Shown: piece by piece, positions 10,047 to 57,034 of the stretch | Layout of the letters: the number at the start of each line of letters is the position of its first letter | Numbering within the stretch: the stretch's first letter is position 1 | Origin: an uncultured Gammaproteobacteria bacterium | Lineage (GTDB): Bacteria > Patescibacteriota > Patescibacteriia > VMEV01 > CAZAJQ01 | Reading direction: 5' to 3' | Assembly (NCBI GenBank): GCA_964485795.1 | Contig: CAZAJQ010000001.1 | Location: 142,014-206,013 of the forward strand | Length of the DNA: 64,000 bases | Notes under the pieces: generated by a model | Databases searched by the model: none | Told to the model about the DNA's origin: nothing | Seen by the model: the letters and a program-made list of their open reading frames with translations, nothing else | Position numbers and translations under genes: made by a program

Positions 10047-10090
10047 GACGCCTCGGCTGCTAAAATTCTTTTCATCAAAAAATCATATTT

Positions 10091-19660: not shown

Positions 19661-19692
19661 AAAGAAGCGAAATCATATCGCTTCTTTTGTTT
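19661..19692. terminator. bidirectional terminator hairpin between convergent genes
   Basis: GAAGCGA AATCATA TCGCTTC with an A-run upstream and TTTTGTTTG downstream. The loop contains the stop codon of the minus-strand gene 19673..20071. Confidence 0.5.
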
Positions 19693-34018: not shown

Positions 34019-34471
34019 ATGTCCATTCTCGCGGTCAACAAAAGAGCCCGTTATGATTATGAAATCCTTGAAACTCTTCAGGCCGGTTTGGCATTGCTCG
34101 GCCACGAGGTGAAATCAGCAAAATTGGGGCAAGTGAGTCTGAAAGGATCATATGTGACGATCCGAAACAACGAAGCCTATCTTCTCAATGCCCATATCGC
34201 GGCATATCGTTTTGCGTCACCCCTTGTCTCCTTGGATCCGGTGCGTACGAGAAAGCTCCTGCTCAAAAAATCCGAAATAAAAAAACTCATCGGCAAACAA
34301 AAAGAAAAAGGTCTTTCGCTTATTCCGATAAAGCTTTACACAAAAAAAAACCTTATCAAACTAGAGTACGGAGTCGGAAAGGGAATGAAAAAAAGCGATA
34401 AAAGCGAACGCAGCAAAAAAAGAAAAACCAACAACAACATCCGCCGGGAGATGAGTGTACGGAGGCGGTAA
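34019..34471 (+). CDS. smpB: SsrA-binding protein SmpB
   Basis: Strong match to the SmpB fold (ARYDYEILETLQAGLALLGHEVKS ... LLNAHIAAY ... RTRKLLLKKSEI) and a basic C-terminal tail. Confidence 0.9.
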   Translation: MSILAVNKRARYDYEILETLQAGLALLGHEVKSAKLGQVSLKGSYVTIRNNEAYLLNAHIAAYRFASPLVSLDPVRTRKLLLKKSEIKKLIGKQKEKGLSLIPIKLYTKKNLIKLEYGVGKGMKKSDKSERSKKRKTNNNIRREMSVRRR

Positions 34472-34841: not shown

Positions 34842-35238
34842 GGGGATGTTTGGATTTGACGGAATGACTCGATAGGTTTCTATGCAAGACGAGCTCGCCA
34901 TGATGCTCGCAAATCTCCGTGGCACATTATAAGTGCAAACTTATTCGCAAAAGCAAAAGATGCCGTGAAAACTTTTTTTGCGGTACCAAGCTTCAGCATG
35001 GCTATTGCCTAAACGCATCGGCCCATCGCGGCTTTTGAGGATTCATAAGGAGCCCGCGGTGCAATATTCATGAATCTCAGGAAATATGTTCGTCACGCCA
35101 TATTCTCCGAAAATTTTGTGACTGTGATGCGGTCGTTTTGCTTTCTTTCTCAGATCGCATCAAGAATGAAAGAAAGCTACTCTTGAAGAAATAGAATTCT
35201 ATCCATTCCAGACGCGGGTTCGATTCCCGCCATCTCCA
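34842..35238 (+). ncRNA. ssrA: tmRNA (ssrA)
   Basis: 5' end GGGGATGTTTGGATTTGACGG closely parallels E. coli GGGGCTGATTCTGGATTCGACGG. 3' tRNA-like domain GGACGCGGGTTCGATTCCCGCCATCTCCA (T-arm plus acceptor 3' strand pairing with the 5' GGGGATG). Candidate tag frame from resume codon GCA at 34935 (preceded by AUAAGU, like E. coli AUAGUC) to TAA at 35010: ANLFAKAKDAVKTFFAVPSFSMAIA. A shorter tag AVPSFSMAIA is an alternative. Confidence 0.8.
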
Positions 35239-35282
35239 TTTTTCGCTCTTCGACGAAGAAGGGCTTTATAAATACTTTATCC

Positions 35283-36490: not shown

Positions 36491-36514
36491 CCATACTTTT
36501 TTTCTCACCACATC

Positions 36515-36588
36515 GGGCCGGTAGTTCAATTGGTTAGAGCGCCGCCCTGTCACGGCGGAGGTTGCGGGTTCGATCCCCGTCCGGCCCG
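36515..36588 (+). tRNA. tRNA-Asp (anticodon GTC)
   Basis: Cloverleaf: acceptor GGGCCGG/CCGGCCC, D-arm GTTC..GAGC, anticodon loop CTGTCAC, T-arm GCGGG TTCGATC CCCGT, discriminator G. Confidence 0.85.
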
Positions 36589-36658
36589 ATGTGGTTGAGA
36601 AGGATCGCTGAAGCAAGCAGCTGTGCCCTCCGAAGCCTCAATACATAAAGATGATTCC

Positions 36659-37375
36659 TCATTCCCCGCGGCACAAGGCCAATCCCATAACGGATTTTGC
36701 TCCGACTTTTTTGAGGACTTTGGCGGCCTCCTGCATGGTGGCACCCGTGGAATAAACGTCATCCACGAGCATTATATTTCGACCGCGAACGGATGACGAA
36801 TCAACGCAAGCAAATACCCCATGAACGCTTATTTCGCGTTCTTTTTTTATTTTCGTCACCTGTGAGCTTCGGTAGTGCGTGCGGATCAACGCCAGAGTAT
36901 TGATTTGTGCGGGTACATGACATTGGATCAAGGCAAGGGCAAGACGTTCGGATTGGTTGAATCCCCGATCTCTCAATCGCTGCCGATGAAGCGGGATTGG
37001 GATGAGGATGGCGTCGCAATGACGCAACGAAACCTTGTGAGCCAAGAGTCGCTGTCGCATATACAAAGCCAGCACGGTAGCGATCTCTTCCACGTATTCA
37101 TATTTGAATGCCAAGAGAAGTTTTTTCACCAAAGCCTGTTCATACGACACGGCGACGAGGAGTCTATCGAGATGGCTTGTTTTCTCGCATGCGCGACACG
37201 GTACGCCATCGGTATTCTGCTGATAGCAGACCGGGCATATCTGATACGGAAGAAGCGAGACGGTGTCGATGCAATCCGTGCAACAAAAATCGACTTCCCG
37301 ATTGCACCCCAAACACACCTTTGGAAAAAGGCTATCCAAAAAAATCTGTCGCATGTGAAATAAAAAATCCTCCAT
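36659..37375 (-). CDS. comF: ComF-family phosphoribosyltransferase (competence protein ComFC-like)
   Basis: N-terminal double zinc-finger cysteines (CLGCNREVDFCCTDC ... CPVCY) and a C-terminal PRTase motif (IMLVDDVYSTGATM). Confidence 0.75.
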   Translation of the reverse strand: MEDFLFHMRQIFLDSLFPKVCLGCNREVDFCCTDCIDTVSLLPYQICPVCYQQNTDGVPCRACEKTSHLDRLLVAVSYEQALVKKLLLAFKYEYVEEIATVLALYMRQRLLAHKVSLRHCDAILIPIPLHRQRLRDRGFNQSERLALALIQCHVPAQINTLALIRTHYRSSQVTKIKKEREISVHGVFACVDSSSVRGRNIMLVDDVYSTGATMQEAAKVLKKVGAKSVMGLALCRGE

Positions 37376-37444
37376 AGAAATGTGGGGGATTTTTTATGAA
37401 ACCGATCGATCATATCAGCACGCTGATAGGCTACGAGACGCATT

Positions 37445-38026
37445 TTACAACCAAAATGCTCCGCTGACAAGCCAATGACCGTCGAGTTTTTGAAGCTCGA
37501 TTTTGAGGTCTTTGAGCTTTGCCGCTAAAACGACCTCGCCGGCTTTGGATTCAAGCGTTTGAACCTTGGCGGTAACGACGGCTTTTTCCGCGTCAAGCGC
37601 ACTTTCCAGTGAAATGACTTTGGCGCTGATACCCTGATAGACTTCGGTACCGGCGGCATAGGTGTCTCGTATCGTCGACTGATACGTCGTAAGCCATTCC
37701 TGCATTTTTGGAGTGGATAATGTTTTCAAATCCGAAAACCCGGAAAACTCGGTTTGATTTGAGTAGCTGCCGTATTTTTCCGCGAAAATGCGGGCAATCA
37801 CTTCCACTTCCGATTCATCGCGACTGGGCTTTGCTTCCGGGGAGGTCAGCGCTTCTTCCGGCGTTTGCGGAGTGCTGTCCAGCCGCGAGGCGGTATCCAA
37901 AGCCGGAGGAAGCGCGCCGCTGAGATTTTCGGAAACCTGTTGCGTTCCCCCGTTTCGCGTCGCAAACCAATACCATGCGAGCGCAAGAACCGCGAGGATC
38001 CCCAAAAAGGCAAAAATTTTTTTCAT
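37445..38026 (-). CDS. hypothetical bitopic membrane protein (possible VirB8-like NTF2-fold component)
   Basis: N-terminal transmembrane helix, a proline/serine-rich linker, and a C-terminal approximately 110 aa domain with an NTF2-like hydrophobic pattern. Sits immediately downstream of the VirB4-like gene. The VirB8 assignment is inference only. Confidence 0.35.
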   Translation of the reverse strand: MKKIFAFLGILAVLALAWYWFATRNGGTQQVSENLSGALPPALDTASRLDSTPQTPEEALTSPEAKPSRDESEVEVIARIFAEKYGSYSNQTEFSGFSDLKTLSTPKMQEWLTTYQSTIRDTYAAGTEVYQGISAKVISLESALDAEKAVVTAKVQTLESKAGEVVLAAKLKDLKIELQKLDGHWLVSGAFWL

Positions 38027-38166
38027 AGTTTCTCCCTCTGTTTAGAAAACGTCTTCATAAACACGAAATGGAACTTTTTTTTCAAAATTCTCTCTGCTCG
38101 AGATGCCGTTTTCACTCATTCGTCGAAAACTCCGCCCCGATGGTGACCGTATCAAAGTGAAGCGGG

Positions 38167-40065
38167 CTATTTCTCTTTCTCGAGAGCTTTCGCAAACTCC
38201 GCTTTTGCGTCTTCGAGCTCGAGGATTTGTCTCGGATCGGAGGTGATGATCTGATCTTCGGTGTAAGAAGCGACGATCTTAATGGCCGCGTGTTTGGCAC
38301 CCGCAAAGAAAATGCCTTCGCCCACACCGCCTTCAAGGAGCAAGTACTTTTCCCCTTCGGTGAGTAAAAAAGTTTTTTGCACGAGGTCTATGGCCGCCGG
38401 AGACTGCTTGAGCAAAAGCTGCAGGGAGGAATTATTGAGGATCGCCTGTCCGTACGGTGAAGAAAGAAAATCATTGACGTCTTGGGTGATGGTCGTCACG
38501 CCAAGATAGTATTTTCTGCAGCGCTTCACCAGCGCATAGATGAATTTCGCGGAATCCTCCCGCTGCATCAGCCACCAAGCTTCGTCGATCACGAGAATGC
38601 GTTTTTTCAGCTCGGAACGGACCACATTCCAGATGTAATTGACGATCGTGTAAATGGCGATAGGGCGAAGCTCGTCTTCAAGATCGCGCACGGAAAACAC
38701 CACAAGCTGATTTCTCATATCCACGTTTGTCGGACTATTGAACAGCCCCGAAAACGTGCCTTGCGTGAATTTGCGCAGCCGCATGGCCAAGTCTTCGCCT
38801 CCGGCCATACCTTCGAGAACGTCTTCAAAATCCTGCATCAGCGGCGCTTCGACACGGCTCAAGTCCGAATCCGCGGTGATATCTTTTTTCGCGTACGTTT
38901 CAAGCAAAGCCCGATCCACGATGGAGTCATCCTTATGCGAAAGATGCCCGATCATGAGGCGAACCAAGCCTTTCAAAGTGATGACCGCCGAGCGAATGAT
39001 GTCCGATGTCTTGACTTCGGATCCGATGGGACGAGGCAGATCAAAAGGATTGATTTTCGCTTCGGAAGCGAGGGAAATATTGATATAGGTGCCGCCCACC
39101 GCATCGGAAAGGTGCTTGTACTCCATCTCCGGATCGATGATGATGATTTCCACGCCCATCATGAGCGAACGCAACACTTCGAGCTTGATCGCATAGCTTT
39201 TTCCGGCTCCGGATGTGGCGAAAATGGAAAAATTGGCGTTTTGCAATGAAAAACGATCAAAAAGAATTAAGCTGTTGTTATGCCGATTGATGCCGTACAA
39301 AATGCCGTTATCGGAAGTGAGCTCCGAAGAAATGAAAGGAAACGAGGATGCGCATGGGGATGAATTCATGTTAAACGACACCATGAGCTCATCGTTGCCC
39401 AAAGGCAAGGTGGAATTGAACCCTTGCTCGGCTTGATAGAGCACCCTTCGCGAATAAATCAATTTGGAACCGAAAACCAGCTCGATGTCATTGGAAATTT
39501 TATCGAGTTCTTCTTTATTTTCCGCATAGGCGGTGACATAAAGAGCGAATTGAAAAAACTTTTCCACGCCCTGCGTCAGACGATCGCGCAATTCCTCGAT
39601 ATCGCGCAAGGCCGTCTCTCGTATCGGGTCTCGGGGAGCGCCTTTTTCGGAATCGCTGATGATCTGCGCTTCGACATAGCCGACTTTTTTTTGCAGCTGT
39701 TTGAGCACGATATGCGCCGGAACCGGATAAAAAAACATGGCGATATCAAGCGTCACGCTCATATTGATCACCGGCGCAAACCAGCCCACGGATATATAGC
39801 GCGGATAGGTGACAACAAAATGGGTACGGACGATTTTCGTGCCCAAAACCACATGATCGGGATTCACTTTGAACGCCGCGGGCGATATCAAATCGCGCAC
39901 CGAAATGGCGCCCCTGCGATACACTCGTTCGGCTTCGACGATTTCCTTTTGACGATTTTGCTCGGCCAGCTTTGCGATACGAGTCGCTTCTTTTTCCGAA
40001 ACGGACACCTCGTCTTTCAGAGGAGAAACGTCTATGGGCGAGATGGATTGTGGGGTGATGGGCAT
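38167..40065 (-). CDS. VirB4/TrbE/PrgJ-family type IV secretion ATPase (C-terminal approximately 630 aa: domain linker plus ATPase)
   Basis: Walker A FATSGAGKSYAIK, Walker B LVIDEAWWLM, and conserved VirB4 regions (VTYPRYISVGWFAPVINM, IIIDPEMEY). Confidence 0.75.
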   Translation of the reverse strand: MPITPQSISPIDVSPLKDEVSVSEKEATRIAKLAEQNRQKEIVEAERVYRRGAISVRDLISPAAFKVNPDHVVLGTKIVRTHFVVTYPRYISVGWFAPVINMSVTLDIAMFFYPVPAHIVLKQLQKKVGYVEAQIISDSEKGAPRDPIRETALRDIEELRDRLTQGVEKFFQFALYVTAYAENKEELDKISNDIELVFGSKLIYSRRVLYQAEQGFNSTLPLGNDELMVSFNMNSSPCASSFPFISSELTSDNGILYGINRHNNSLILFDRFSLQNANFSIFATSGAGKSYAIKLEVLRSLMMGVEIIIIDPEMEYKHLSDAVGGTYINISLASEAKINPFDLPRPIGSEVKTSDIIRSAVITLKGLVRLMIGHLSHKDDSIVDRALLETYAKKDITADSDLSRVEAPLMQDFEDVLEGMAGGEDLAMRLRKFTQGTFSGLFNSPTNVDMRNQLVVFSVRDLEDELRPIAIYTIVNYIWNVVRSELKKRILVIDEAWWLMQREDSAKFIYALVKRCRKYYLGVTTITQDVNDFLSSPYGQAILNNSSLQLLLKQSPAAIDLVQKTFLLTEGEKYLLLEGGVGEGIFFAGAKHAAIKIVASYTEDQIITSDPRQILELEDAKAEFAKALEKEK

Positions 40066-40076
40066 AGGTTGGAAGT

Positions 40077-40106
40077 AAGTTCTCAGCAGTCAGTACTCAG
40101 TTCTCA
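40077..40106 (+). repeat. heptamer (TACTCAG-type) repeat in the gap between the two VirB4 ORFs
   Basis: AAGTTCTCAGCAGTCAGTACTCAGTTCTCAG. The same short intergenic segment also contains the GAGAACTTA direct repeats. Confidence 0.6.
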
Positions 40107-40148
40107 GAAATAAGTTCTCAATGCTCGGCAGTGAGCTTGAAGATGGGG

Positions 40149-40826
40149 TCAGTCGACTTGAATTTTGCTGGTCTCAACGAGTTTTTGATTTTGAGAAACG
40201 ACGGGATTGTAACTATTATAGTACAATTCGATGAGATTTTGTGTATTGAGCATTACCGAATTCAGCCCCATGCTGTTCAGCCCCTGTCGGATAAGGCTGA
40301 CCCGCTGCATGAGATCTTTTTTGCGAGAGACGAAACGTTTTCGGTCGAGCGTCACGGCCGCAGCCGGTCGCAAACTTTCGGACAATCGGGAAAAAAATCC
40401 CTTTTGTTTGTTTGACAGCGGATCATAGGGAACGGTGAGGTAAAATTTTTTGCTCATGATTTGCCCCAAGGAAACCAGCTCCTGGATATATTGACGATAT
40501 TCGATGGTCTGCATGCGCAGAAGCTCGTTGGTTTGCTCCTTTTCCATTGATTTGAGACGCTCGATGTAATTGTCGATGTTGAGCTTGCGTGATTGCACCA
40601 CGATCTGTATGGGAAATTCAAAGGAATTGATGAAACTCACATACGAAGAAATCACGGCGTTTTGTTCGTCTTCGGACTTCAGAGCAAAATTTATGGACGA
40701 TACCAAAAGCACGGCGCGCAAAGTGCCGTCATTGAGCACCACCGCATCGTCACGGATCTCATAAATGTCAAGGTATTTTTGCGTGGACTGACGGGTGATT
40801 TTTTTTGCGAGTTTTTTGTTTTGCAT
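40149..40826 (-). CDS. VirB4 N-terminal domain protein (separate ORF)
   Basis: Pattern typical of the VirB4 N-terminal domain (DGTLRAVLLVSSINFALKSEDEQNAVISSYVSFINSFEFPIQIVVQSRKLNIDNYIERL). Its frame differs from the downstream ATPase ORF and it ends 84 nt before that ORF's ATG. Confidence 0.55.
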   Translation of the reverse strand: MQNKKLAKKITRQSTQKYLDIYEIRDDAVVLNDGTLRAVLLVSSINFALKSEDEQNAVISSYVSFINSFEFPIQIVVQSRKLNIDNYIERLKSMEKEQTNELLRMQTIEYRQYIQELVSLGQIMSKKFYLTVPYDPLSNKQKGFFSRLSESLRPAAAVTLDRKRFVSRKKDLMQRVSLIRQGLNSMGLNSVMLNTQNLIELYYNSYNPVVSQNQKLVETSKIQVD

Positions 40827-40859
40827 AGGAAAATTTCAACGAATGTCGGACATTCCCCT

Positions 40860-41333
40860 TTATGAAGGGGGGGCTTTCTGGTTTAAAATGCCCTCCCCCC
40901 GATACTCTCCTCCGGTGTCGACGATGAGAGCGATTTCGGAGAGCGAAGATGAGCCGAGCGGACGCTTGAGCGGGACGGGATCTTCTCCGGCGACCACGGA
41001 TTCGGTTTCGCGTTTCAGGATGGCCGAAACTTCGGCATCCGTGAGGCTTTTGTCCCAGACGCGAAGCTTGGGCTTTCGAAACGTCTGGATGATATTGAGG
41101 ATGAAATAATGAAACGGCATGCCATTGACCCTGAAAAACGCGAAAAGCGCGGTAACTCCCACATCCACTATCGCGGATATGACAAAGTAAACGAAGTATC
41201 GGGTGGAAAGAAGCTTGAAAAGTATGAAAAGAATCAATCCTCCGACGATGAGCAGGACAAATTGTCGCGTGGTGATGGGTCCGAAAATCTTGTCCTCCAC
41301 GTCAATGAATTGCGGAACCGTGAATTGCTGCAT
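40860..41333 (-). CDS. VirB3/PrgI-like small membrane protein
   Basis: N-terminus FTVPQFIDVEDKIFGPITTRQFVLLIVGG with two transmembrane helices, resembling the PrgI/VirB3 family, and placed immediately upstream of VirB4. Confidence 0.5.
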   Translation of the reverse strand: MQQFTVPQFIDVEDKIFGPITTRQFVLLIVGGLILFILFKLLSTRYFVYFVISAIVDVGVTALFAFFRVNGMPFHYFILNIIQTFRKPKLRVWDKSLTDAEVSAILKRETESVVAGEDPVPLKRPLGSSSLSEIALIVDTGGEYRGEGILNQKAPPS

Positions 41334-41349
41334 AGGATTCTTTCAAAGG

Positions 41350-43047
41350 CTAATGGGAAAATCGCAATCGACCCGACAGTTTCAAGATCGACAGGCATTC
41401 TTCATAGGTCAAAGTTTCCTTTTTCGCTTTTTGCCTTTGCGCTATAGCTTCCTTGATACTTTGACCGCCTTGCAAACATTCCCAGAGAATCGTCTTGTAC
41501 TGCGAAAAAACTTCCGATCGTCGGAAAGCCTCGATCGCAAGGATATAATTGGAAAAAGATTCCTGTCGCAAAAAATAAATCTTATCGTAAATCTTCTGGC
41601 ATATGTCTTTTGGCTTTGACGCCAAACGGCGGAAATCCGTCAAAGAATATTCCAGCTCGGTAACGGGTGAACGAAGCTTGAACTTGTCCGCATCTTTGGA
41701 CACCGGAGATATCGTTTCGGCGGATTTTTCGTATATGACCTCGGTAATCTTTGATGCATTCCCTTTCTTTTCTTCATTCATTTCAGGTTGAACCTTCCGT
41801 GTTGTATCGATCGCGGGCACAATGGAATCTTCGACTGCCGGAAGCTTGAGAACATTGCTCTTTTCCGTGCCCTCCTTTGCCGAGATCGGCTCTATGGCTT
41901 CAAAGGGGTGATTCATCTCGCTCGCATGAACCGATTCTTTTTTTGTATTCTCTTGAAGCTTCGTCGATAAAGTAGATGGAGTTTGAAGTGTTTGTTTCGT
42001 TCCTGCCAACAGCTCTGCAACCGGTTTTGTCATCTCGCTTTTCTTCCTCAGCTGAGGAACCGCCGGCTCTTGCATCTTTTTCTGCGAACCGGCCGATAAA
42101 CTTTTATGAAATTGCTCCTTGTCTTTGTCGGTAACTTCGGAGTAAATATCCGCGAGAATTTTTTGCGTCAGCTCTTCGGCTTCTTTTTTCACGTCAAAAG
42201 GCGTTTCTTTTTTGACTTCCGTGGAGCTTGGAAACGGTTCTTCGACCGGTGAAGACATAATTTCCCGTTTCGGGGGCACCAAAATTTCAACCTCCGAAAC
42301 GACCGGTAGAGGTCTTGACGCTCCCGCCTTGAGTTCCGCTTTTTCTTTGAGCGACATCGGTCTTATGGGAGACGGCATGGAAGATTTCATCTCCGCGGGC
42401 TTTGGCGATTGTTTGCTTCCCGACGCCGATTTGAACTCGATTTTTTTTGGCAATGGCGGCAAAATCTTATGATCCGCCCCGCTAAAAGATTTTTGCACCG
42501 AGGCCTGAAACCCTTCAAAAGGAAGCTGCATGGCTTCGGCCGTCAAGCGCAATAAAATATCGGCCTGATGAGCGAGAAGCGACACTCCGCCGGAAGCGAT
42601 ATCGGAAACGAGCATTTTTTTGAAATCGTAATTTTTTCTGACGTTTTTCAGACGGCTGACAACGAGGGACACGAGCCTCCGGCGCAAATCCTTGCTCATG
42701 ACGAGAATTCCGCTTTTCTTGATGATTTCATGCGCCTTGACTTCATCGTGATTGCCGCTTTGAGCGGGCATTAGCGATTTGAAACGCTCGATCTCGCGAT
42801 CTTGCCCGACAGAGTCGAGCGGATCGTCTTTGAGAATGTCCCCTCTCGTCAAAGGCTCGTCGGTGGTTATCGTTTTTTGCAAGGTTTCCGCTGAAACCGT
42901 TTCGGACGCGCGATCCAGGACGACTGCCGGATACTGATCCAAGGGTATCAATTTCCCCCGCGACAGCACTTTGAAGCTCCCATCATTGTCTTTGATGAGC
43001 ATATCGTCGTCATGGAGCTCGATGTCGGGGAAGTTGTTGTCGGACAT
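41350..43047 (-). CDS. hypothetical protein (565 aa, low-complexity central region)
   Basis: Long ORF with operon spacing inside the T4SS-like cluster. No known motif. Confidence 0.5.
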   Translation of the reverse strand: MSDNNFPDIELHDDDMLIKDNDGSFKVLSRGKLIPLDQYPAVVLDRASETVSAETLQKTITTDEPLTRGDILKDDPLDSVGQDREIERFKSLMPAQSGNHDEVKAHEIIKKSGILVMSKDLRRRLVSLVVSRLKNVRKNYDFKKMLVSDIASGGVSLLAHQADILLRLTAEAMQLPFEGFQASVQKSFSGADHKILPPLPKKIEFKSASGSKQSPKPAEMKSSMPSPIRPMSLKEKAELKAGASRPLPVVSEVEILVPPKREIMSSPVEEPFPSSTEVKKETPFDVKKEAEELTQKILADIYSEVTDKDKEQFHKSLSAGSQKKMQEPAVPQLRKKSEMTKPVAELLAGTKQTLQTPSTLSTKLQENTKKESVHASEMNHPFEAIEPISAKEGTEKSNVLKLPAVEDSIVPAIDTTRKVQPEMNEEKKGNASKITEVIYEKSAETISPVSKDADKFKLRSPVTELEYSLTDFRRLASKPKDICQKIYDKIYFLRQESFSNYILAIEAFRRSEVFSQYKTILWECLQGGQSIKEAIAQRQKAKKETLTYEECLSILKLSGRLRFSH

Positions 43048-43125
43048 AATATCGCATTAGCGCACTCTGAAAAAGAATGGTTCGTCAAATCTGCGAACGA
43101 GTACTCGGTTGTAAATTCTCAGCTC

Positions 43126-44508
43126 TTATTTTTTCATCCACACAAAAGCATTGGTTTGCATGTCGAAAAAAGAAAGCTGGGCGTATTTTTTTATTCCGGA
43201 TTTCTGTGAAATTTTTGAAATTTGCATGCCCACCATGCACGCTTGGGGCACCGATTGCTTGAGCCGATGCACAAAAAGGTATTCAAGGAATATCTGAAGA
43301 TTTCGCGGAGTTCCCGGGAGGATGGTATAGCTTTGCAAAGCGTCCGCGTCTTTTTTGACCTCGCGCAAATATTTTTCAAATTCACGGGCGATTTTGACCT
43401 CGCGAAGCATATCATCCAACCAGCCGTTTTTCGCCAAAAGCCGCAACGAAGCGATCGTTTTGATCATGTTTGGATTATAGCCTGTTTTGGGATTCATTGC
43501 ATCAAAAACATAGTTCATCAAAGCGTGTTTCAGATCATGGGCATCGCCCAAAATTTCATTTTCGGATTCGGCGATGAGCGTTTGCTCTTCCGCGCTGCCC
43601 CGATAATCCGTCACATTGCCGGAAAAATTCACTGCGCTTGTTTTGAAAGTCGGCGCCGTAGGCAAACTCGGCAATCCGGCGGGGAGTTTCGGTTTTTGGG
43701 GTGATGCAACGCCACCGTTTTTTTTCAGCTTCTGCGCGATATCGTATACGGTCGTCACATCGACTTTTTCGCCGGTTTCGATGTCATACATTTCTCCGCG
43801 ATCATAATCATAGGCCTTGTCTCCGACGATGAGTATGCCCTCTTCATCGAGCCCCTGCGGAGTGAACGAAGGCATCTTCAGATAAAGGTAAAGGTTGAAC
43901 AGGTTCAGAATCTTTTTTTTCTCATCGGACAGTAGACGATTGAACGCTCGATCCTGCGTTTTAAACTTGGAAATTTCCAATGCGCTGACGACCGGAAAAA
44001 CGTTGAATTTTGCGATGAGATACCGCATCCAATCGCCCAAACTCCCCTCGATCTCTCCGTCGTCGCGGAGAATATTTTGCGTGATCACTTCTTTGTTGCG
44101 GGTCAACGAGTCCAAAAAACGCTTTTTGACGGCGTCGCGATCTTCCCAGTCCACGATATTGCCGCGTATGAAGGTGCGAAGGTTCAAGATGAGGTCAAAA
44201 CCTTCGCGGTCGAATTCGAGAACCGACCCGAGATGGCTTTCGAGGAGGCGGAGGATATCATTGATCGTCAAGGTTCGTATCATTCGGAAACGAAGCTTCA
44301 TGAGCAGCAAACGAAGCTCTTTTTCATTGGCTGAGCCGACATTGACGTCAAAGGGATTTTGAAGCTTCCCTTCGAGAGTTTCGATGAATTTTGAAGTTTG
44401 CCCGTTCGCATCTGCAAGCAAATCCAAACCTTCCCGATACACTTCTTCAAACGTGTCCGGGACGAGGATTTCAGGGAGGGTGAGGGATTGGATGTCGGGC
44501 ATAGGCAT
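43126..44508 (-). CDS. hypothetical protein (460 aa)
   Basis: Long ORF with operon spacing inside the T4SS-like cluster. No known motif. Confidence 0.5.
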   Translation of the reverse strand: MPMPDIQSLTLPEILVPDTFEEVYREGLDLLADANGQTSKFIETLEGKLQNPFDVNVGSANEKELRLLLMKLRFRMIRTLTINDILRLLESHLGSVLEFDREGFDLILNLRTFIRGNIVDWEDRDAVKKRFLDSLTRNKEVITQNILRDDGEIEGSLGDWMRYLIAKFNVFPVVSALEISKFKTQDRAFNRLLSDEKKKILNLFNLYLYLKMPSFTPQGLDEEGILIVGDKAYDYDRGEMYDIETGEKVDVTTVYDIAQKLKKNGGVASPQKPKLPAGLPSLPTAPTFKTSAVNFSGNVTDYRGSAEEQTLIAESENEILGDAHDLKHALMNYVFDAMNPKTGYNPNMIKTIASLRLLAKNGWLDDMLREVKIAREFEKYLREVKKDADALQSYTILPGTPRNLQIFLEYLFVHRLKQSVPQACMVGMQISKISQKSGIKKYAQLSFFDMQTNAFVWMKK

Positions 44509-44517
44509 ACAAAAAGA

Positions 44518-47211
44518 CTAAGTCGTTGGAGGATTGCCCATCTGGCCCCCCCCTTTTTTCTGCATAGGTTTCCGTACCTTTCGCTGATTCGCTTCTCGCT
44601 CTTTTCTTCTCTCAGACTTGGTATGAACATTTTTAAACTCCTCAACAAAAGCATCAATATTTGCTTTCTGACCTTGAGTCAAGTTGTCATATCCCCCTTC
44701 CCCGGTAATATGGCCCTTATCATCAAAGGTCGCATGTTTTCCAAGTTCATTTTTGAGAAGCCTTTCACCGTCCGGCTTTTTCATGATCTCAAGAAGCTTA
44801 TTGGTGATATAAGAATTCAGCTTTGGAATATCACCCGAATTCGCCCATGTGGTGCCGAATTTTTGCAGTCCCATGGTAAACTCCATCTTAATTTTTGCAT
44901 TATAGGCAGAACGTTCATAGGCATTATCTCTCGAGTATCCGGTAATTTGCCTCCGCGTATCCAGCTTCTCCTTATCCGAAATCGCCTTATTGATGCGTTC
45001 CTGATCAGTGGAAAATCGCAGCTTTTTTTCCTTCATGTCATAAACCGTAATGCCGGATAAGGTCGGAAATTTATCAGCCATATTATCAAGCATTTGTGCG
45101 ACTTCCGCGGCCTTGTGTTCATCGCCGTGAAATAAATGTTTGAGCACCGTTTCAGCATTTGACATATTGTCCGCAACTCCATATATTCTTTTTCCATCCT
45201 CTTTTTCAACTCCATTTTCATCTTTCTCTCTCTGTATATATTCCTTCTTAGCGTCATCCTCTAAGCTGTCAAATACATCTGCATCCATTATAGTTCCATT
45301 ATCATGTATATATTGACCCGCATCATTTTTCCTATATTTCGGATCCATTTTGAGGTTTTGCCCCTCCGGTAAGTGTGCATTGACCTGAGCTATAAAATCC
45401 GGAGTCATATCCTTGAGAAAATCGTTAAAATCTCCCTTTTGCGTCATGGCCGCCAACAAAGCTTGTATTTCCAATTCCTTACCGCTGCCAGCAGTAAAAT
45501 CAGGATTCAAATATTCGTACAGCTTGGCCATGAAACGCGGGGCTTCATTTCCTTCCTTTTTCATTTTATCCATTTTTTCAACCAATTCACGACGTTCAGT
45601 CTCTTCACGCTTCCCGAGATCTTCCGGAATTTCCGGCAACCCGATCTTTTGAGTCTGTTTATTGATCCCGCGTATCGCATTATAAAAAACATCCTGCACA
45701 GCCTCTTCCTGATGCTTGGTCATCTCATGCGATACATGATCCCAAACCGCTTTTGCGGCGGCGGGTATAGCGGGTAGCTTTTGAACGCCTCTGCCGACCC
45801 ATGAGGTATAATCTCCCGCGCCCTCCACCGCTTTTCCGAGCCCTCCCGTCCATCCTTCACGCTCCGAACCAAGAATTTTCCCCGCCTTCTCCAGCCCCCC
45901 ACCAACGGCTCTCAAGCCGACTCCGTACATCCGCCCCCCCCACTTCATGGAGCTGAGCGCCAGCTTGCCGCTCGTGATGCTTTCCGCCAGCTTCCCTGCC
46001 CATTGACCTCCGGCCACACCCAGTTCGCCGGTGATCATGAGCCCCGCCACGAGCATGCCGATACCGACGATAAAGGTGGTTAAAGTGTTTGAGTTCAACT
46101 TCGTCAATCCTTGCCCGCCTTGCGGATCATCCTTGGGTTGAAAAGCCGTTCCTCCGTATCCTTCGGTTCTTGTTATCGTCGTGATGGAAAGCCATAGAAA
46201 AAAAGCGAGTACCGGCCCCACGATAAGATACTTGGTGAACATATCCCACCATTTTTTCCCGTACGATTCCCCGCCGGGGATCACCGATAAGACGTACGGC
46301 AAGGGTGACAAAGCCACGAGCAACCACAACATGATGACACGCATGACCAGCACGCCGATGATCACCAACACCAGCCAAAACAAAATAAAAGATGTAAAAA
46401 GAGTGCCAAAAAGAGCGAATAGAGTCGCTGCGATAAAATTGGCGGCTGCTCCGGGAGCCGATCCTACTGCTGGTTCAAAACCATCATTGGAGACCTTCAT
46501 ATCCGAAATGAGAGATATCAAATGAGACGGCCACTTCGGCCCCAGAACATTCAAAAATGTGAGCATGATAACTTGAGAAATGTCAATGAAGAATCCGGCT
46601 ATGGTTCGAGAAAAATTCACGAGTATCGCCATCAAGATAAGCTTCGGCAACATTTTTTTGTAATTGTACGCTTCAATGCGAAGTATGGTGCTGAAGGCGA
46701 TAATCAAAAGCGCCACGACAAAAAAACTGTTCGCCACGTCTCTCGCGGCGATCCAGCCGAGCGTTACGGCCGTGGAAGATAAAAAATCGTTGTATGAGGC
46801 AACGGTTGTCAGCACGGGAATCAAAAGGTTTGACAACGCGCCTCCTATCAAACGAGTCACCACCCATATGAGCCAACCGAAAATGGTCAATACCACATTA
46901 GCGATCGAACCGAGCTGCGCATGACCGGCGAACGGCACAAACAAAAACACCATCGCAAAAAAACCTACGATGATGGAGTGTTTTGAATTCAAAATCTTTG
47001 GTATCCGAAACAATCGCGAAAACAGAAGTGACATGCGAATATTCCACGCAAAAAGCACTTCAAAAAGTATTTCATGGAAGCGACGGAACATAATCCCTGC
47101 GTTTTTGTTTGAAGAAAACTTCCGAATGAAGAAAAAAATCTCACCACGAGAGAGGAAGATGAAATAATAATACCATAAGACCGCGTTCATGCCATAGCTT
47201 TGCGGCAACAC
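44518..47211 (-). CDS. large polytopic membrane protein, VirB6/TrbL-like candidate, with a charged C-terminal domain
   Basis: Signal-like N-terminus, at least eight hydrophobic helices in the first 450 aa, and a K/E-rich C-terminal approximately 400 aa. Heads the minus-strand operon that contains VirB3/VirB4. The family assignment comes from topology and context only. Confidence 0.45.
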   Translation of the reverse strand: MLPQSYGMNAVLWYYYFIFLSRGEIFFFIRKFSSNKNAGIMFRRFHEILFEVLFAWNIRMSLLFSRLFRIPKILNSKHSIIVGFFAMVFLFVPFAGHAQLGSIANVVLTIFGWLIWVVTRLIGGALSNLLIPVLTTVASYNDFLSSTAVTLGWIAARDVANSFFVVALLIIAFSTILRIEAYNYKKMLPKLILMAILVNFSRTIAGFFIDISQVIMLTFLNVLGPKWPSHLISLISDMKVSNDGFEPAVGSAPGAAANFIAATLFALFGTLFTSFILFWLVLVIIGVLVMRVIMLWLLVALSPLPYVLSVIPGGESYGKKWWDMFTKYLIVGPVLAFFLWLSITTITRTEGYGGTAFQPKDDPQGGQGLTKLNSNTLTTFIVGIGMLVAGLMITGELGVAGGQWAGKLAESITSGKLALSSMKWGGRMYGVGLRAVGGGLEKAGKILGSEREGWTGGLGKAVEGAGDYTSWVGRGVQKLPAIPAAAKAVWDHVSHEMTKHQEEAVQDVFYNAIRGINKQTQKIGLPEIPEDLGKREETERRELVEKMDKMKKEGNEAPRFMAKLYEYLNPDFTAGSGKELEIQALLAAMTQKGDFNDFLKDMTPDFIAQVNAHLPEGQNLKMDPKYRKNDAGQYIHDNGTIMDADVFDSLEDDAKKEYIQREKDENGVEKEDGKRIYGVADNMSNAETVLKHLFHGDEHKAAEVAQMLDNMADKFPTLSGITVYDMKEKKLRFSTDQERINKAISDKEKLDTRRQITGYSRDNAYERSAYNAKIKMEFTMGLQKFGTTWANSGDIPKLNSYITNKLLEIMKKPDGERLLKNELGKHATFDDKGHITGEGGYDNLTQGQKANIDAFVEEFKNVHTKSERRKEREANQRKVRKPMQKKGGGQMGNPPTT

Positions 47212-47280: not shown

Positions 47281-48714
47281 TTATATCAACAAGAAGTAGT
47301 CTAACGGAACTTTGACCACATTGGCGTCATCCAGTAAAGTGAGCGAATTTTTGCAGATCACGACGCCATACTTGGCCGATCCGACTTTCTTCATAGATTT
47401 TCTTACCTGAGTGCCAAGCTTTTCACCCACACCCACTTCAATCGGAATAATGCTCTTCCCTGCGACAGTGAGTATAAAATCCGCGCCGGCTTTTGAGCTG
47501 TCGTAATTCAAAGCACCTCGGCTATTGGCGACGTATTCCCGATACAAGGTCATCGCGACGATATCTTCCATAAGACGGCCTTTCTGTCCCGCGAAAATTT
47601 GCTCATTGCCCGCGATGGAAAGAAATGCCGAACGGAATGCGCTAGACATGAATTGGTAACGAGACGGCTTCCTAACTTTTTTGGCGTTTGAGCCGTATGG
47701 CATCACACGTATGAGCAATTCGGTCTGCTCCAATACTTCAAGAATATTGGAAACGGTGTTGACGCTCGTCTCAAGCGTTTTGGCGAGTTTCTGAATACTC
47801 ACTACGTCAGACTCCGCCAACAAAAACAATACCCTTTTGATATGAATGAGAGTCGAGGCATCAAAACGACCAAGATTTTGTACGTCCTGATTAATTACTT
47901 TGTCCAAAAGCAAAGTGATCGTCTGATAGACACGCGCTTCGTCTTTCATCCGGATGGCGAACGGCAAAGTGCCGATTTTCAAATACTCATCGACATAATT
48001 GCGATCGATAGAAGCCCACGTACTTGCCACAATCGGCTCATGTTTTTTTAGCTTTTCATAAGCATCTCGAGCCGATTCGGCGCCAAATAATGCATCCTTT
48101 ATATTTTGCTTCAACCCCTTCGCAGGCAGTTTTCCATCGCGGATCATTAAAAATTCAGAGAAACTGGTCGGAAAAAGTTTTTGAAAAACGGATCTACGTA
48201 TCACATCAGGGTTGGTCTGCAGAGAAACAGCCGACGAACCACTGCACGCAATAAAAACTCTATTTGACCGGTCATATACAGACTTTAATACCGACGCCCA
48301 CCATGGATCGTATTGCGCTTCGTCTATAAATATAAAAATCGGCTTGGTGAGCTTTTCAAAGCTTTCACCGATTACCTTTTCGTATGCACTCAAGACATCC
48401 TTCAAAGACGAGCCGAGTACATTCACCACTTCATCCAGCGAAACGTAAAGCATTCTCCGATCATCGACGTCTTGGCGATGATTGAAAAAAAGCTGTGCCA
48501 GAATGGTGGTCTTACCGACACCGCGAAGTCCCGGAATTATGATCCAGCGATCTCGAGCGTTTGGGTTATGTAAAAAATCTCGAAAATATTTATCCATTTT
48601 GACATAAATATTCCTTTGCGGATATTTTTTACCCTGCTCATCATGGATGTAGGATTTAAGGCGAAAAGGGGCTTGAACAAGCTGGTTTTGTACATACTTG
48701 AGGATTTCTTCCAT
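47281..48714 (-). CDS. AAA+ ATPase with a C-terminal DUF4143-like domain
   Basis: Walker A PGLRGVGKTT and Walker B IFIDEAQY. The overall architecture matches the widespread AAA_14/DUF4143 ATP-binding proteins. Confidence 0.8.
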   Translation of the reverse strand: MEEILKYVQNQLVQAPFRLKSYIHDEQGKKYPQRNIYVKMDKYFRDFLHNPNARDRWIIIPGLRGVGKTTILAQLFFNHRQDVDDRRMLYVSLDEVVNVLGSSLKDVLSAYEKVIGESFEKLTKPIFIFIDEAQYDPWWASVLKSVYDRSNRVFIACSGSSAVSLQTNPDVIRRSVFQKLFPTSFSEFLMIRDGKLPAKGLKQNIKDALFGAESARDAYEKLKKHEPIVASTWASIDRNYVDEYLKIGTLPFAIRMKDEARVYQTITLLLDKVINQDVQNLGRFDASTLIHIKRVLFLLAESDVVSIQKLAKTLETSVNTVSNILEVLEQTELLIRVMPYGSNAKKVRKPSRYQFMSSAFRSAFLSIAGNEQIFAGQKGRLMEDIVAMTLYREYVANSRGALNYDSSKAGADFILTVAGKSIIPIEVGVGEKLGTQVRKSMKKVGSAKYGVVICKNSLTLLDDANVVKVPLDYFLLI

Positions 48715-48760: not shown

Positions 48761-49025
48761 TAATCTATTAACACAGAGATGTCAAACACGCTTTTTTTGC
48801 CTGTAGTTAAGGCTTTTTCAGAGCATTTACTAAACAGATTTAAAACATTTTCATAATTTTGCAGCGCCGAAAAACTTTTCTCTCCTCTCTGACATATCAT
48901 TCCCCATATAATAAAATTCAAGATAAAAAAATAAGCGAGTCACGTGAGGTTTCTCTTCGCATCTGATACAATAAGGCAACATTCTCTTTTCCCTTCATGT
49001 ATGAAGATTTGGAATGGAGGAATCT

Positions 49026-50801
49026 ATGCACACCGCCACAGTCAACGCCATTCCGAACACGACGCAAAAAAGCTCGCTGCTTGAGCTTCTTTCGCGTCAC
49101 TTCGGCTATACGATGTTTCGGCAAAACCAGCAAGATATCATCGAGAGCATCCTCGCGGGAAAAAACACGGCGGTGATCATGCCCACGGGTGCCGGGAAAT
49201 CCCTGTGTTATCAGCTTCCGGCCATGATTTTGCCGCATCTCACCGTCGTCGTTTCTCCCCTCATCTCGCTGATGAAGGATCAGGTGGACAGTCTCAACGC
49301 ACGGGGAAATCGATCGACGTTTATCAACAGTTCCCTTTCGTATGCCGAACAAACGGCTCGACTCGACGCGACTCGGAGCGGATCGTTCAAGCTTCTCTAT
49401 GTCGCTCCCGAGCGATTCGGCAATCAAGAATTCCTCGCATCGCTCAAAACCATTCCCCTATCGCTTTTTGTGATCGACGAAGCGCATTGCATCTCCGAAT
49501 GGGGACATGATTTTCGCCCCTCCTATCTGCGGATCAAAGACGCCATCGGCGAACTGAAAACCGCGGGGCAGTCGTTTCCCGTCAGCGCATTGACGGCCAC
49601 CGCCACACCGGAAGTGAAGCGTGACATCATCAAACAGCTGGCTCTGGAAACCCCCCGCATCTTCGTGTCGGGATTTCGCCGCGACAATCTCCGGCTGGAA
49701 GTGAAGCGCACGTCGGCTTTCCAAAAAATCGATTATCTTCTGCCGGCTTTGCGAAGCGCGCAGGCCGACGGAAGCGCCATCATCTATGCCGGAACGCGAA
49801 AAAAAGTCGAGGAAACCGTCATGGTTTTGCGGGAATACGGCATACCAAGCGACGGATACCATGCCGGCATGGAAAACGAAGAACGAAAAAAAGTTCAAGA
49901 AGATTTTCTTACGGGAAAAACGAAGGTCATGGTGGCGACCAACGCTTTCGGCATGGGCATCGACAAGCCGGACATACGACTCGTCATACACCACGATATG
50001 CCCGGAACTCTCGAAAATTATTATCAGGAAATCGGACGCGCCGGTCGAGACGGGAAGCCGAGTCGATGCATCTTGCTCTCCAGCGCCGGAGATCGTTACC
50101 TGCGCGAATTTTTTCTTGCCGGAGAAAATCCCTCCCCTCAAACGATCAAAGAAGTGTACCATTTTCTCATCCGCGAACACAGCCGCCACAATCACGCTGC
50201 GACCGGCGAATCGACTCTCTACGTGACGGGCACGGACATAGCCGGCAGCGTATCCGATGAAATCAATGAAATGGCCATTTCCACGGCTCTCAAAATACTT
50301 GAAAAGGAAGGATATATCGAACGTCTCAGCGAAAAAGACAATCCCGCTTCCGCGACGCTACTCCGTCAACCCGAAGAAATCCTCGCGGCCGTCGGCAATC
50401 GCGCCAAAAAACAAATCGAAGCGATCCGCATTTTCGTCTCCAGCTACGGAGCGGCAAAAAGTCGAGAAATCCGATTTTCACTCGATGATGTCGCCTCACT
50501 CATGAACGTGAAAAAAAACTCCGTGCAAGCCGCGCTCAACGCCATGAAAAAAAATCATCTCATCGCGTATGAACCTCCCTTCCGAGGACGCGGCATCAAA
50601 ATGCTCAAAACCTCGGGGCTCAACATGAACTTTGAAGCTCTAGAAGAAAAACGCAAACGCGACTACGGCAAACTCGATCTCATGGAAGCCTACGCCCATC
50701 ACTCCGGCTGCCGGCACGCTTATATCCTCGAATATTTCGATGAAAAAAATATTCTGAGATCGTGCGGAAGCTGTGATAATTGTCTCATGAAATCGCTATG
50801 A
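49026..50801 (+). CDS. recQ: second RecQ-family helicase (helicase core plus RQC zinc/winged-helix region, no HRDC)
   Basis: MPTGAGKSLCYQLPA, VIDEAHCISEWGHDFRPSY, QEIGRAGRDG and a C-terminal Cys cluster (CRHAY...CGSCDNC). Start moved to the internal ATG 49026. Confidence 0.9.
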   Translation: MHTATVNAIPNTTQKSSLLELLSRHFGYTMFRQNQQDIIESILAGKNTAVIMPTGAGKSLCYQLPAMILPHLTVVVSPLISLMKDQVDSLNARGNRSTFINSSLSYAEQTARLDATRSGSFKLLYVAPERFGNQEFLASLKTIPLSLFVIDEAHCISEWGHDFRPSYLRIKDAIGELKTAGQSFPVSALTATATPEVKRDIIKQLALETPRIFVSGFRRDNLRLEVKRTSAFQKIDYLLPALRSAQADGSAIIYAGTRKKVEETVMVLREYGIPSDGYHAGMENEERKKVQEDFLTGKTKVMVATNAFGMGIDKPDIRLVIHHDMPGTLENYYQEIGRAGRDGKPSRCILLSSAGDRYLREFFLAGENPSPQTIKEVYHFLIREHSRHNHAATGESTLYVTGTDIAGSVSDEINEMAISTALKILEKEGYIERLSEKDNPASATLLRQPEEILAAVGNRAKKQIEAIRIFVSSYGAAKSREIRFSLDDVASLMNVKKNSVQAALNAMKKNHLIAYEPPFRGRGIKMLKTSGLNMNFEALEEKRKRDYGKLDLMEAYAHHSGCRHAYILEYFDEKNILRSCGSCDNCLMKSL

Positions 50802-55742: not shown

Positions 55743-56798
55743 TTATTTCTTGCACTTTTCATGCACTCTCTTCAGAGTGCAAAACTCTTTGACTACTTCA
55801 ATGAGAGCCGACACAAACTGGAGACATATCTCCTTTTCTTGTCTTAACATTAACTTGGTCAGCTCATGCGCATCTGATATTTCTTTTTTTTCGCGATTAA
55901 AAGATATCTGAAGCGTCTTTTCCTGCGCGTTCAAGGCTATTGTTTTGTCTTGTGCAGCCTTCTGCTCAAGCTCATTTTTTTGCTTCACAAGAGCCTCGTT
56001 TTGACCTTGTTCAAGTACCCTTTTTTGCGCTAACAGAATCTCACCATGATTTTTTTCGAGAGCCTTTTTTTGAGCCTCGAGAGCTGAAGATTTTTCTTTT
56101 TCAAGATCACTCTTCTGCTTTTGAAGTGCAACGGATTGTTTCGTGCTGAACTTTTTGTGAAGCCAATGATCGGTATTATCAAAGACTCCATTCAGTTCAA
56201 GTTTGAAAGCAGCTTCTAATTGATTTTTTTGCTCGGTCAAAGCATCTTTCTTCTTTTCGAGAAAGAAAGCTTGAACTTGATGTCCGGGATCAGACACGAC
56301 CTTTTTCAGCTCATCTTTTACAGCTTTCGTTACGGCATCCTGCTTTTCATCGGAAATTTTTTTCGACAAAGCATGGGAGGGATCAGCAAGTATCTTTCTA
56401 AATTCGACATCGGCATCAAATTTCGCCTTGATACTTTCTAACTTCTTCACCACCTCTTCTCTTTTTGCAATATCCTTTTCTCGATCCCCAAGCTTCACCT
56501 CTTTAAGCTCCACCGAGGCTTCACGTTCTGCGAGGATATTGTCCTGATTTTTTTTCTGAGCTTCAAGAAACTCCAGAACAAGCTTCTTGACGTCCGCATG
56601 CTCGGAATTCGTGTCAAAAATCTTCAATTGCTTCATGACTTTTTCAAGGTTTGCATTCTGATCTTTCAAAAACTTCACCTTATTTTCAGCAGCAATCCTT
56701 AACTTTTTTTCGTTTTCCAAGATTTTAGTCTCTTCATTCCCGAAAATACTTGAAAAACACCACAACACAGCACAAAAACTAAATACAACCTTTTTCAT
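55743..56798 (-). CDS. secreted K/E-rich coiled-coil protein
   Basis: Signal peptide (FSFCAVLWCFSSIFG), then heptad-rich charged sequence throughout. Confidence 0.5.
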   Translation of the reverse strand: MKKVVFSFCAVLWCFSSIFGNEETKILENEKKLRIAAENKVKFLKDQNANLEKVMKQLKIFDTNSEHADVKKLVLEFLEAQKKNQDNILAEREASVELKEVKLGDREKDIAKREEVVKKLESIKAKFDADVEFRKILADPSHALSKKISDEKQDAVTKAVKDELKKVVSDPGHQVQAFFLEKKKDALTEQKNQLEAAFKLELNGVFDNTDHWLHKKFSTKQSVALQKQKSDLEKEKSSALEAQKKALEKNHGEILLAQKRVLEQGQNEALVKQKNELEQKAAQDKTIALNAQEKTLQISFNREKKEISDAHELTKLMLRQEKEICLQFVSALIEVVKEFCTLKRVHEKCKK

Positions 56799-57034
56799 GA
56801 CAAAAACTCCTTTTCAGAAAATTAACCACTATTATAAAGAAACAATACGTTTTTTGAATAATATAAATTATCACAAAATAGTATATTGGTCAATATTGAC
56901 AGTATTGTATAAATATGGCAATTTATGAGATTGGTTTTTTATGGACCGTTGTTTACAATTCAATGATTTTTTTGATGAAAAAATAGTTATTTGAAGAGAA
57001 TTTTTTGTTTTTGAAAACAGAGAGGAAGAAAAAA

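Follow-up and report, generated by a model that had tools for sequence, protein, structure and literature searches.

Genes of a type IV secretion system beside tRNA-Asp

A run of eight consecutive open reading frames (ORFs) occupies positions 36659-47211 on the minus strand of the 64-kb stretch of contig CAZAJQ010000001.1 analysed here (the window). We are highly confident that this run is a chromosomal type IV secretion system (T4SS) locus of the Patescibacteria (the candidate phyla radiation, CPR) with an ABY1-type layout. All eight ORFs are co-oriented and lie where an earlier annotation of this DNA, made without database searches (the original prediction), had placed them. From the first gene of the run to the last, with lengths in amino acids (aa), they are:

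44518-47211, minus strand: extended VirB6-like polytopic membrane protein, 897 aa as the maximal ORF and likely 857 aa
43126-44508, minus strand: p460, a 460-aa accessory protein outside known families, with two helical domains
41350-43047, minus strand: p565, a 565-aa accessory protein outside known families, directly upstream of prgI
40860-41333, minus strand: PrgI/VirB3-like membrane protein, 157 aa (PF12666)
40149-40826, minus strand: TrsD-like protein (VirB4 N-domain), 225 aa (matches to N-terminal parts of VirB4/TrsD profiles)
38167-40065, minus strand: VirB4-family ATPase, 632 aa (NF045971 and Walker motifs)
37445-38026, minus strand: bitopic 193-aa protein (p193), candidate VirB8 analogue (NTF2-like), from topology, position and sporadic family matches
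36659-37375, minus strand: ComF(C)-family protein, 238 aa, the final gene of the run (zinc ribbon and phosphoribosyltransferase domain)

From the VirB6-like gene to comF, the intergenic spacers measure 9, 78, 16, 33, 83, 140 and 69 nucleotides (nt). The predicted range of 9-80 nt therefore describes most of them but not the 83- and 140-nt spacers, the wider of which lies upstream of the 193-aa gene and its strong ribosome-binding site (AGGGAG). The length of 897 aa originally given to the polytopic protein holds for the maximal ORF, which begins at a GTG. An ATG at 47091, yielding 857 aa, is the likelier start, given the AGGGA upstream of it and its choice in the public annotation. A tRNA-Asp gene (36514-36589, plus strand) adjoins the locus as predicted, separated from comF by 69 nt. 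The p565 protein is identical to HY453_00755 of the metagenome-assembled genome GCA_016204025.1 (Parcubacteria group bacterium).

At the other end of the run, a co-oriented gene for an AAA_14/DUF4143 ATPase with a MarR-like helix-turn-helix (47281-48714, minus strand) lies 69 nt upstream of the maximal VirB6-like ORF. We considered it as a component of the system and rejected it because 79 of the 80 related loci described below lack it. With a counterpart in only one of them, it is likely an unrelated insertion.

Identities of the core genes

Profile hidden Markov model (HMM) searches against Pfam and NCBIfam, with the Pfam scans covering window ORFs of about 130 aa or longer, supported the VirB3 and VirB4 identities. 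PrgI matches PF12666 (E = 4.6e-11; 43.6 bits against a gathering cut-off of 27) and, in a hydrophobicity scan, displays two hydrophobic helices within aa 16-69 ahead of an acidic tail of about 65 aa, in keeping with the two-helix VirB3/PrgI-like protein that had been proposed. The VirB4 ATPase matches NF045971 (conju_CD1110) over profile positions 173-729 of 752 (E = 1.8e-103; 347 bits against a cut-off of 325) as well as the Pfam families P-loop_TraG (5.6e-29), AAA_10 and DUF87, and its translation carries a Walker A motif, GAGKS, and a Walker B motif, VIDEAWW. Relative to a full-length VirB4, this 632-aa protein covers the middle domain and the C-terminal domain. The 225-aa TrsD-like protein matches only the N-terminal parts of NF045975 (1.2e-10), NF045971 (6.3e-5) and the TrsD model NF041427 (1.2e-5), all three below the family cut-offs; public annotation assigns it to PF26593 (TraC-like). 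These matches bear out the predicted division of VirB4 into an N-domain ORF and an ATPase ORF. In 79 of the 80 related loci TrsD has a gene of its own, coding for about 226 aa, indicating that the split is ancestral and not the product of a frameshift.

The last gene product matches TIGR00201 (comF) over its full length (7.1e-27; 94.6 bits against a cut-off of 233) and GntX (8.6e-27, below the equivalog cut-off), together with Pribosyltran above its cut-off (9.4e-9) and DZR_2 (2e-4). Its translation contains N-terminal Cys clusters and the phosphoribosyl pyrophosphate-loop motif VDDVYSTGAT, so that the zinc-ribbon and phosphoribosyltransferase architecture expected of the predicted ComF protein is present.

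Topology, position and the published near-restriction of VirB8 to ABY1 among Patescibacteria (Quinonero-Coronel 2025, PMC12102498) make the VirB6-like and VirB8-like assignments likely. The hydrophobicity scan placed about seven to eight hydrophobic segments at aa 73-400 of the VirB6-like ORF; the C-terminal region of about 500 aa is charged and poorly conserved, and the family alignment shows a conserved transmembrane (TM) core with a variable tail. Four of 41 relatives match Pfam PF04610 (TrbL/VirB6; best E 4.6e-5). In the 193-aa protein, a single N-terminal TM segment (aa 1-23) is joined by an acidic linker to a C-terminal domain of alpha+beta type, roughly 120 aa long. Among 67 relatives, two match NTF2_YvbJ (4e-5), one SnoaL_4 and one TcpC. 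Both original calls thus fit topology and position but are supported weakly, through a few relatives; the window proteins themselves gave no match.

Conserved gene order in related loci

A scan for the VirB4 ATPase with one genome per species returned more than 590 relatives, of which the best 80, with VirB4 ATPases 70-80% identical to that of the window, formed the synteny set. Where the titles of relatives name a lineage, it is patescibacterial (Falkowbacteria, Uhrbacteria, Parcubacteria and one Saccharimonadales); many other titles are generic or evidently mislabelled. The order VirB6-like, p460, p565, PrgI, TrsD, VirB4, p193 recurs across the 80 loci, typically with about 300-460 aa at the p460 position, 400-660 aa for p565, 145 aa for PrgI, 632 aa for VirB4 and 200 aa for the bitopic protein. 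PrgI holds the same position in 77 of the 80 loci, and the 193-aa family directly follows virB4 in 68-78 of them. For the families upstream of prgI, the informative loci were the 48 with at least 6 kb of upstream DNA, and 36 of these carry the VirB6-like family, whose length in related loci ranges from 744 to 1439 aa. The comparison across related genomes thus shows an order kept in 80 other species and hence an arrangement that is not due to chance. Together with the level of VirB4 identity, it fits vertical inheritance under purifying selection.

Some loci hold additional genes. In L007, genes for riboflavin synthase, lumazine synthase and flavokinase (6041-7450) lie between the VirB6-like gene and p565; L013, L015, L039 and L045 have ORFs of the same size at this position, seen by size alone. 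In L001, two genes for 23S rRNA-intervening-sequence proteins are interleaved in the T4SS cluster.

Two accessory families without a known fold

The original prediction had described the two proteins encoded between the VirB6-like protein and PrgI as large and domain-less. They are conserved and linked to the T4SS, and they remain without a recognizable domain. The hydrophobicity scan found no TM segment in either protein, Pfam and NCBIfam searches returned no match, and PDB sequence profile searches with each gave no real match.

The p460 family comprises 463 representative clusters at E<=1e-3 among 1.84 billion proteins, mostly of 420-470 aa, and a Pfam scan of all 111 relatives in its alignment was empty. 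An AlphaFold2 model built from that 111-sequence alignment (mean predicted local distance difference test score, pLDDT, of 89.6) consists of two mainly helical domains, aa 1-265 and 299-460, with a disordered Pro-rich linker between them. Foldseek searches of this model against PDB and BFVD found nothing at E<=1e-3; the hits were generic helical solenoids and repeats with E>=0.04 and TM-scores below 0.22. The gene is present in 31 of the 48 informative loci, usually between the VirB6-like gene and p565.

Conservation in p565 is concentrated in aa 100-180 and aa 460-565, and the intervening stretch of about 270 residues varies and is of low complexity. A single-sequence word-index search with p565 was nearly empty owing to this low-complexity linker; alignment searches with trimmed domains gave 21 matches for p565 and four for p460. 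The AlphaFold2 model, from a 23-sequence alignment, has three ordered parts with pLDDT values of about 95, whereas the disordered linker scores under 50. The ordered parts are a small N-terminal beta element (aa 10-40), a helical module (aa 100-180) and a six-helix C-terminal domain (aa 460-560). In the helical module the family consensus is TYLRGxR...GGLGL, from which the window protein has diverged (SRLKNVR...GGVSL); in the C-terminal domain the consensus is NFRRL...AWR and the window protein reads DFRRL...AFR. The best Foldseek hit against PDB had an E-value of 0.34. Structure prediction, a check proposed with the original prediction, thus yielded confident helical domains and no known fold for both proteins. 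Iterated local HMMs detected p565 in 75 of the 80 loci and in all 48 informative ones, and nearly every locus carrying p565 has it directly upstream of prgI.

The two families are also joined to each other. L031, L060 and 6 of 150 representatives carry natural fusions in which the p460 N-domain precedes or adjoins an entire p565 within one chain. The fusion in L084 stands in a T4SS context, between a large unannotated protein at the VirB6-like position and PrgI/TrsD/VirB4. In L066 (6174-7475), the p565 helical module is joined to the p460 C-domain, and in the 586-aa protein P0002 the helical module with its GGLGL motif is tandemly duplicated. These two proteins show module shuffling between the p460 and p565 families.

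The two proteins are inherited together, have shuffled their domains and contain no membrane segments, all of which suggests a cytoplasmic complex that belongs to the machine; p460 and p565 are probably a lineage-specific cytoplasmic module of it. Of the proposal that they are candidates for new structural components, conservation and T4SS linkage stand; without membrane segments, they are better viewed as cytoplasmic proteins than as parts of the channel. The definition of the two families, their fusions and the absence of a known fold do not appear to be in print, as far as the accessible portions of the literature extend. As two widespread accessory families outside all annotation libraries searched, p460 and p565 offer concrete targets for interaction, localization and structure studies.

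Downstream genes follow the VirB4 tree

We compared the downstream neighbourhood in the 61 loci with enough downstream DNA. The bitopic gene is directly followed by comF in 21 of these, often with spacers of a few nt or apparent overlaps, and by radA (zinc ribbon, RecA-like ATPase and Lon/ChlI C-domain) in 15; radA lies one gene later in several more (nine tree terminals by hand count). These states, and that of a third, sister clade with neither comF nor radA at this position, follow the VirB4 neighbour-joining tree, which indicates a few ancestral arrangements and not repeated independent recruitment. comF is a clade-conserved neighbour of the T4SS genes and is probably co-transcribed with them. 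Its adjacency hints at the handling of incoming single-stranded DNA, and the recurrent ComF/RadA neighbourhood provides a testable handle on the published idea of DNA import.

In the scanned members of the third clade, proteins of 350-420 aa with a T4SS_pilin domain (PF18895), far longer than ordinary VirB2 pilins, are encoded two genes after the bitopic gene. Their coordinates are:

L005, 13090-14358: T4SS_pilin-domain protein (PF18895)
L060, 13358-14494: T4SS_pilin-domain protein (PF18895)
L035, 13519-14562: T4SS_pilin-domain protein (PF18895)

In L005 the pilin-domain gene is followed by genes for a PD40-repeat protein and a DsbA-like protein. The pilin-domain, radA and DsbA-like genes of related loci had no tblastn match in the window.

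A chromosomal setting without signs of mobility

The locus is embedded among housekeeping genes. One flank carries genes for arginyl-tRNA synthetase, a class II aminoacyl-tRNA synthetase, SmpB, transfer-messenger RNA (tmRNA), initiation factor IF3 and the ribosomal proteins L35 and L20, as well as tRNA-Asp; the other carries a RecQ gene. Pfam scans of the larger ORFs found no VirD4-type coupling protein (T4CP), relaxase, integrase or VirB1-type hydrolase in the window, as the original prediction had stated.

A decayed integrative and conjugative element (ICE), inserted at tRNA-Asp and since deprived of its relaxase, coupling protein and integrase, would account for a partial gene set beside a tRNA gene. 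tRNA genes are common ICE integration sites, this one lies 69 nt from comF, and the core genes derive from Gram-positive conjugation machinery. We nevertheless regard such a remnant as extremely improbable. Beyond the missing mobility genes, the end of the tRNA has no direct, att-like repeat, GC content is even across the window, and the flanks are core translation genes. The VirB4 identity and the gene order are maintained in the chromosomes of 80 species, in agreement with the earlier view that this is not an ordinary ICE remnant.

Proposed mechanism and alternative functions

The gene identities, their conservation, the chromosomal setting, the fusions and the lack of known folds are shown by the results above. 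From homology with Gram-positive T4SSs, we infer how the machine would assemble, what p460 and p565 would do and what it would move. The locus would encode a non-conjugative envelope translocon in which a two-piece VirB4, formed by the TrsD-like protein and the 632-aa ATPase, docks at the membrane via PrgI/VirB3 and powers a channel built by the extended VirB6-like polytopic protein. The 193-aa bitopic protein would act as a VirB8-like scaffold on the membrane's outer side. Most likely p460 and p565 form a lineage-specific cytoplasmic module at its base, serving for example assembly, or the recruitment of substrates where no coupling protein is linked. The whole would most likely carry macromolecules between epibiont and host, in line with the proposal made for the essential system of Southlakia epibionticum. 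We consider this full statement, identity together with assembly and mechanism, to be probable.

Several observations weigh against it. The VirB6-like window protein has no Pfam or NCBIfam match, and the 193-aa protein drew a blank in Pfam, NCBIfam and PDB sequence profile searches. PDB profile searches with all four unassigned families produced coiled-coil or TM noise only. Comparison of these families with 14 pCF10 Prg/Pcf proteins, including PrgF, PrgH and PrgL, gave hhalign probabilities of at most 5% (2.5% for the VirB6-like family against PrgH and 4% for the 193-aa family against PrgL, neither significant), with single pCF10 sequences as templates and hence low sensitivity. A VirB1-type hydrolase and a VirB2-like pilin are considered parts of the Saccharibacteria T4SS; no such hydrolase was found in the window, nor did any scanned window ORF match PF18895, a search that small divergent pilins could escape. 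The case for co-transcription of the eight genes consists of their orientation and spacing, and a promoter and terminator scan of the locus gave counts at chance level and was uninformative. The role given to p460 and p565 is argued from position, co-inheritance and fusions, with no structural similarity from Foldseek, PDB profiles or Pfam in its support. Finally, essentiality is known only from the distant class Saccharimonadia.

A 132-aa ORF with three hydrophobic segments (19673-20071, minus strand) was tried as a VirB2 pilin and rejected, having no family match even at E<=1. It lies 17 kb from the T4SS genes, and its signal-like segment and two helices give it a topology reminiscent of VirB2.

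A rival to the proposed translocon draws on the neighbourhood of the 193-aa gene. The recurrence of comF and radA after it, with tight or overlapping spacers, and of RecQ-type helicases nearby would suit a dedicated DNA-import machine that takes up host or environmental DNA in the manner of archaeal Ced or Helicobacter ComB with ComFC. In such a machine ComF, or in sister clades RadA, would receive the single-stranded DNA and feed it into recombination or into the salvage of nucleotides, with p460 and p565 as the cytoplasmic hand-over module; the machine would need neither the relaxase nor the coupling protein that the window lacks. The same hypothesis is raised by Quinonero-Coronel 2025 (PMC12102498), where the conclusion is that these T4SSs may import DNA or other macromolecules from hosts. 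The original suggestion of DNA uptake or cell-to-cell transfer is a reasonable idea and already published. The neighbourhood signal is real but clade-structured: whether comF or radA is present tracks the VirB4 tree and reflects a few ancestral arrangements, the third clade has T4SS-pilin-domain, PD40 and DsbA-like genes instead, and other classes of Patescibacteria have their T4SS near dnaA/dnaN (PMC12102498). Co-orientation is weak evidence in gene-dense CPR genomes. The archaeal models showed P-loop similarity only (CedB, 45.7 bits against a cut-off of 700; CedD, 22.5 against 600), and the net charge of the p565 domains, taken as a hint of DNA binding, is not consistently basic across the family. 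The only genetic data also oppose an essential role dependent on Com proteins. Transposon sequencing (Tn-seq) of S. epibionticum found the T4SS essential and ComEC, ComF and DprA non-essential, and transformation in this species requires ComEC (Wang 2023, PMC10633639). The essentiality pattern argues against a simple competence role. We therefore hold dedicated DNA import to be unlikely. Still less credence goes to a more specific form of it, in which p460 and p565 are an undescribed ABY1-type module that replaces the coupling protein and links the VirB4/VirB6 translocon to the downstream ComF, or to RadA in sister clades, for the import of host DNA. If this were true, the locus would do the work of Ced or ComB as an import machine that arose independently of them.

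Conjugation or export of chromosomal DNA, with a coupling protein and an unrecognized relaxase encoded elsewhere in the genome, strikes us as very unlikely. Our analysis covered one 64-kb window of the genome, and VirD4-like genes are reported for 2,918 genomes of Patescibacteria, in most cases distant from virB4, whereas relaxases were found in only 103 and are rarely linked to virB4 (PMC12102498). The distant T4CP of S. epibionticum is not essential, and we found no origin of transfer (oriT) or relaxosome gene near the locus. The macromolecular translocon outlined above, acting between epibiont and host, remains our preferred reading.

Other features of the window

A type IV pilus cluster lies at 4835-10630 (plus strand), about 26 kb from comF. 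Besides a PilB-type ATPase (T2SSE, 5e-124) and PilC (T2SSF), it encodes two or more prepilins that have N_methyl motifs, including one with LVIVD/beta-propeller repeats; three small ORFs with a single TM segment each come next. The type IV pilus is a known organelle of DNA uptake and host adhesion in Saccharibacteria. The tmRNA gene (34842-35241, plus strand; Rfam, 111 bits; predicted tag peptide AKAKDAVKTFFAVPSFSMAIA) adjoins smpB (34019-34471). Pfam matches further identify genes of DNA metabolism:

156-2021, plus strand: RecQ-family helicase
49014-50801, plus strand: RecQ-family helicase
20605-23568, minus strand: AddA-like UvrD helicase with a PD-(D/E)XK nuclease domain
24972-25814, minus strand: TatD DNase

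RecQ recurs within a few kb of virB4 in 14 of the 80 related loci. Two adjoining large proteins of secreted type, with DUF11 repeats and with a GHL15 glycosyl-hydrolase-like domain plus FG-GAP repeats, are encoded at 51372-55243 (minus strand) and are possible surface or host-contact proteins. Four other large proteins have no Pfam match, at 57005-60112 (plus strand, 1035 aa), 16433-18403 (minus strand, 656 aa), 14978-16342 (minus strand, 454 aa) and 55743-56798 (minus strand, 351 aa); hydrophobic segments, either N-terminal or internal, are present in the first three.

Comparison with known systems

Patescibacteria contribute much of bacterial diversity and apparently live on other cells, and we know of no other T4SS that is essential for the cell that carries it. 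The locus resembles Helicobacter pylori ComB with ComFC and archaeal Ced in being a translocon derived from a T4SS, in having a VirB4-type ATPase but neither relaxase nor coupling protein, and in its genetic association with ComF(C). Unlike the window, ComB is a diderm system with VirB7, VirB9 and VirB10 homologues, and the likeness to Ced is confined to the P-loop similarity noted above. We know of no DNA-uptake function shown for any Patescibacteria T4SS.

The parallel with the MPF-FATA prototype, Enterococcus faecalis pCF10, extends to gene order: PrgH (VirB6), PrgI (VirB3), PrgJ (VirB4) and, further on, PrgL (VirB8-like) correspond to the 897-aa protein, PrgI, VirB4 and the 193-aa protein. 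The best NCBIfam model for the window ATPase, the CD1110 family, is of the same class. The two differ in VirB4, which is a single chain in pCF10, and in the PrgK hydrolase, PcfC coupling protein, relaxase and adhesins that pCF10 possesses and the window lacks.

In S. epibionticum ML1, SEML1_0006-0019 share with the window the core order VirB6-like, PrgI, TrsD-like, VirB4 and a cluster free of relaxase and coupling protein (PMC10633639). They also encode extended VirB6-like proteins, each some 1000 aa long, and a TraM-like protein of NTF2-like type, comparable with the VirB6-like protein and the VirB8-like candidate of the window. That locus differs in its two VirB6-like proteins with ARM-repeat tails, its 300-aa PrgI, its essential array of VirB2-like pilins and its downstream peptidase and lysozyme genes; going by the structure-based table of that study, it has neither p460/p565-type genes between VirB6 and PrgI nor an adjacent comF (PMC10633639).

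The closest match is the Patescibacteria-clade T4SS of ABY1, belonging to what a 2025 review treats as a new T4SS group (PMC12857230). Quinonero-Coronel 2025 (PMC12102498) describes a monophyletic Patescibacteria VirB4 clade related to MPF-FATA, abundant TrsD, PrgI/VirB3, VirB6 and VirB2-like proteins, VirB8 homologues almost only in ABY1, almost no relaxases, T4CP genes far from virB4, and ABY1 loci that commonly include comF, recG and radA. The window agrees in its VirB4 clade, separate TrsD, PrgI/VirB3, VirB6-like protein and VirB8-like candidate, and likewise in being chromosomal, without a relaxase or linked T4CP, and next to comF. It departs from that description in the VirB2-like pilin, which many genomes have near virB4 and which we did not find in the window. 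GCA_016204025.1 is not mentioned in the text supplementary tables of that study, and its available portions do not assign the two proteins between VirB6 and PrgI that we define as the p460 and p565 families. The observation behind the original prediction and its main interpretation are thus already in print, and the locus adds no new kind of system. It is a clean ABY1-type example of the Patescibacteria T4SS, and its modestly new element is the p460 and p565 families.

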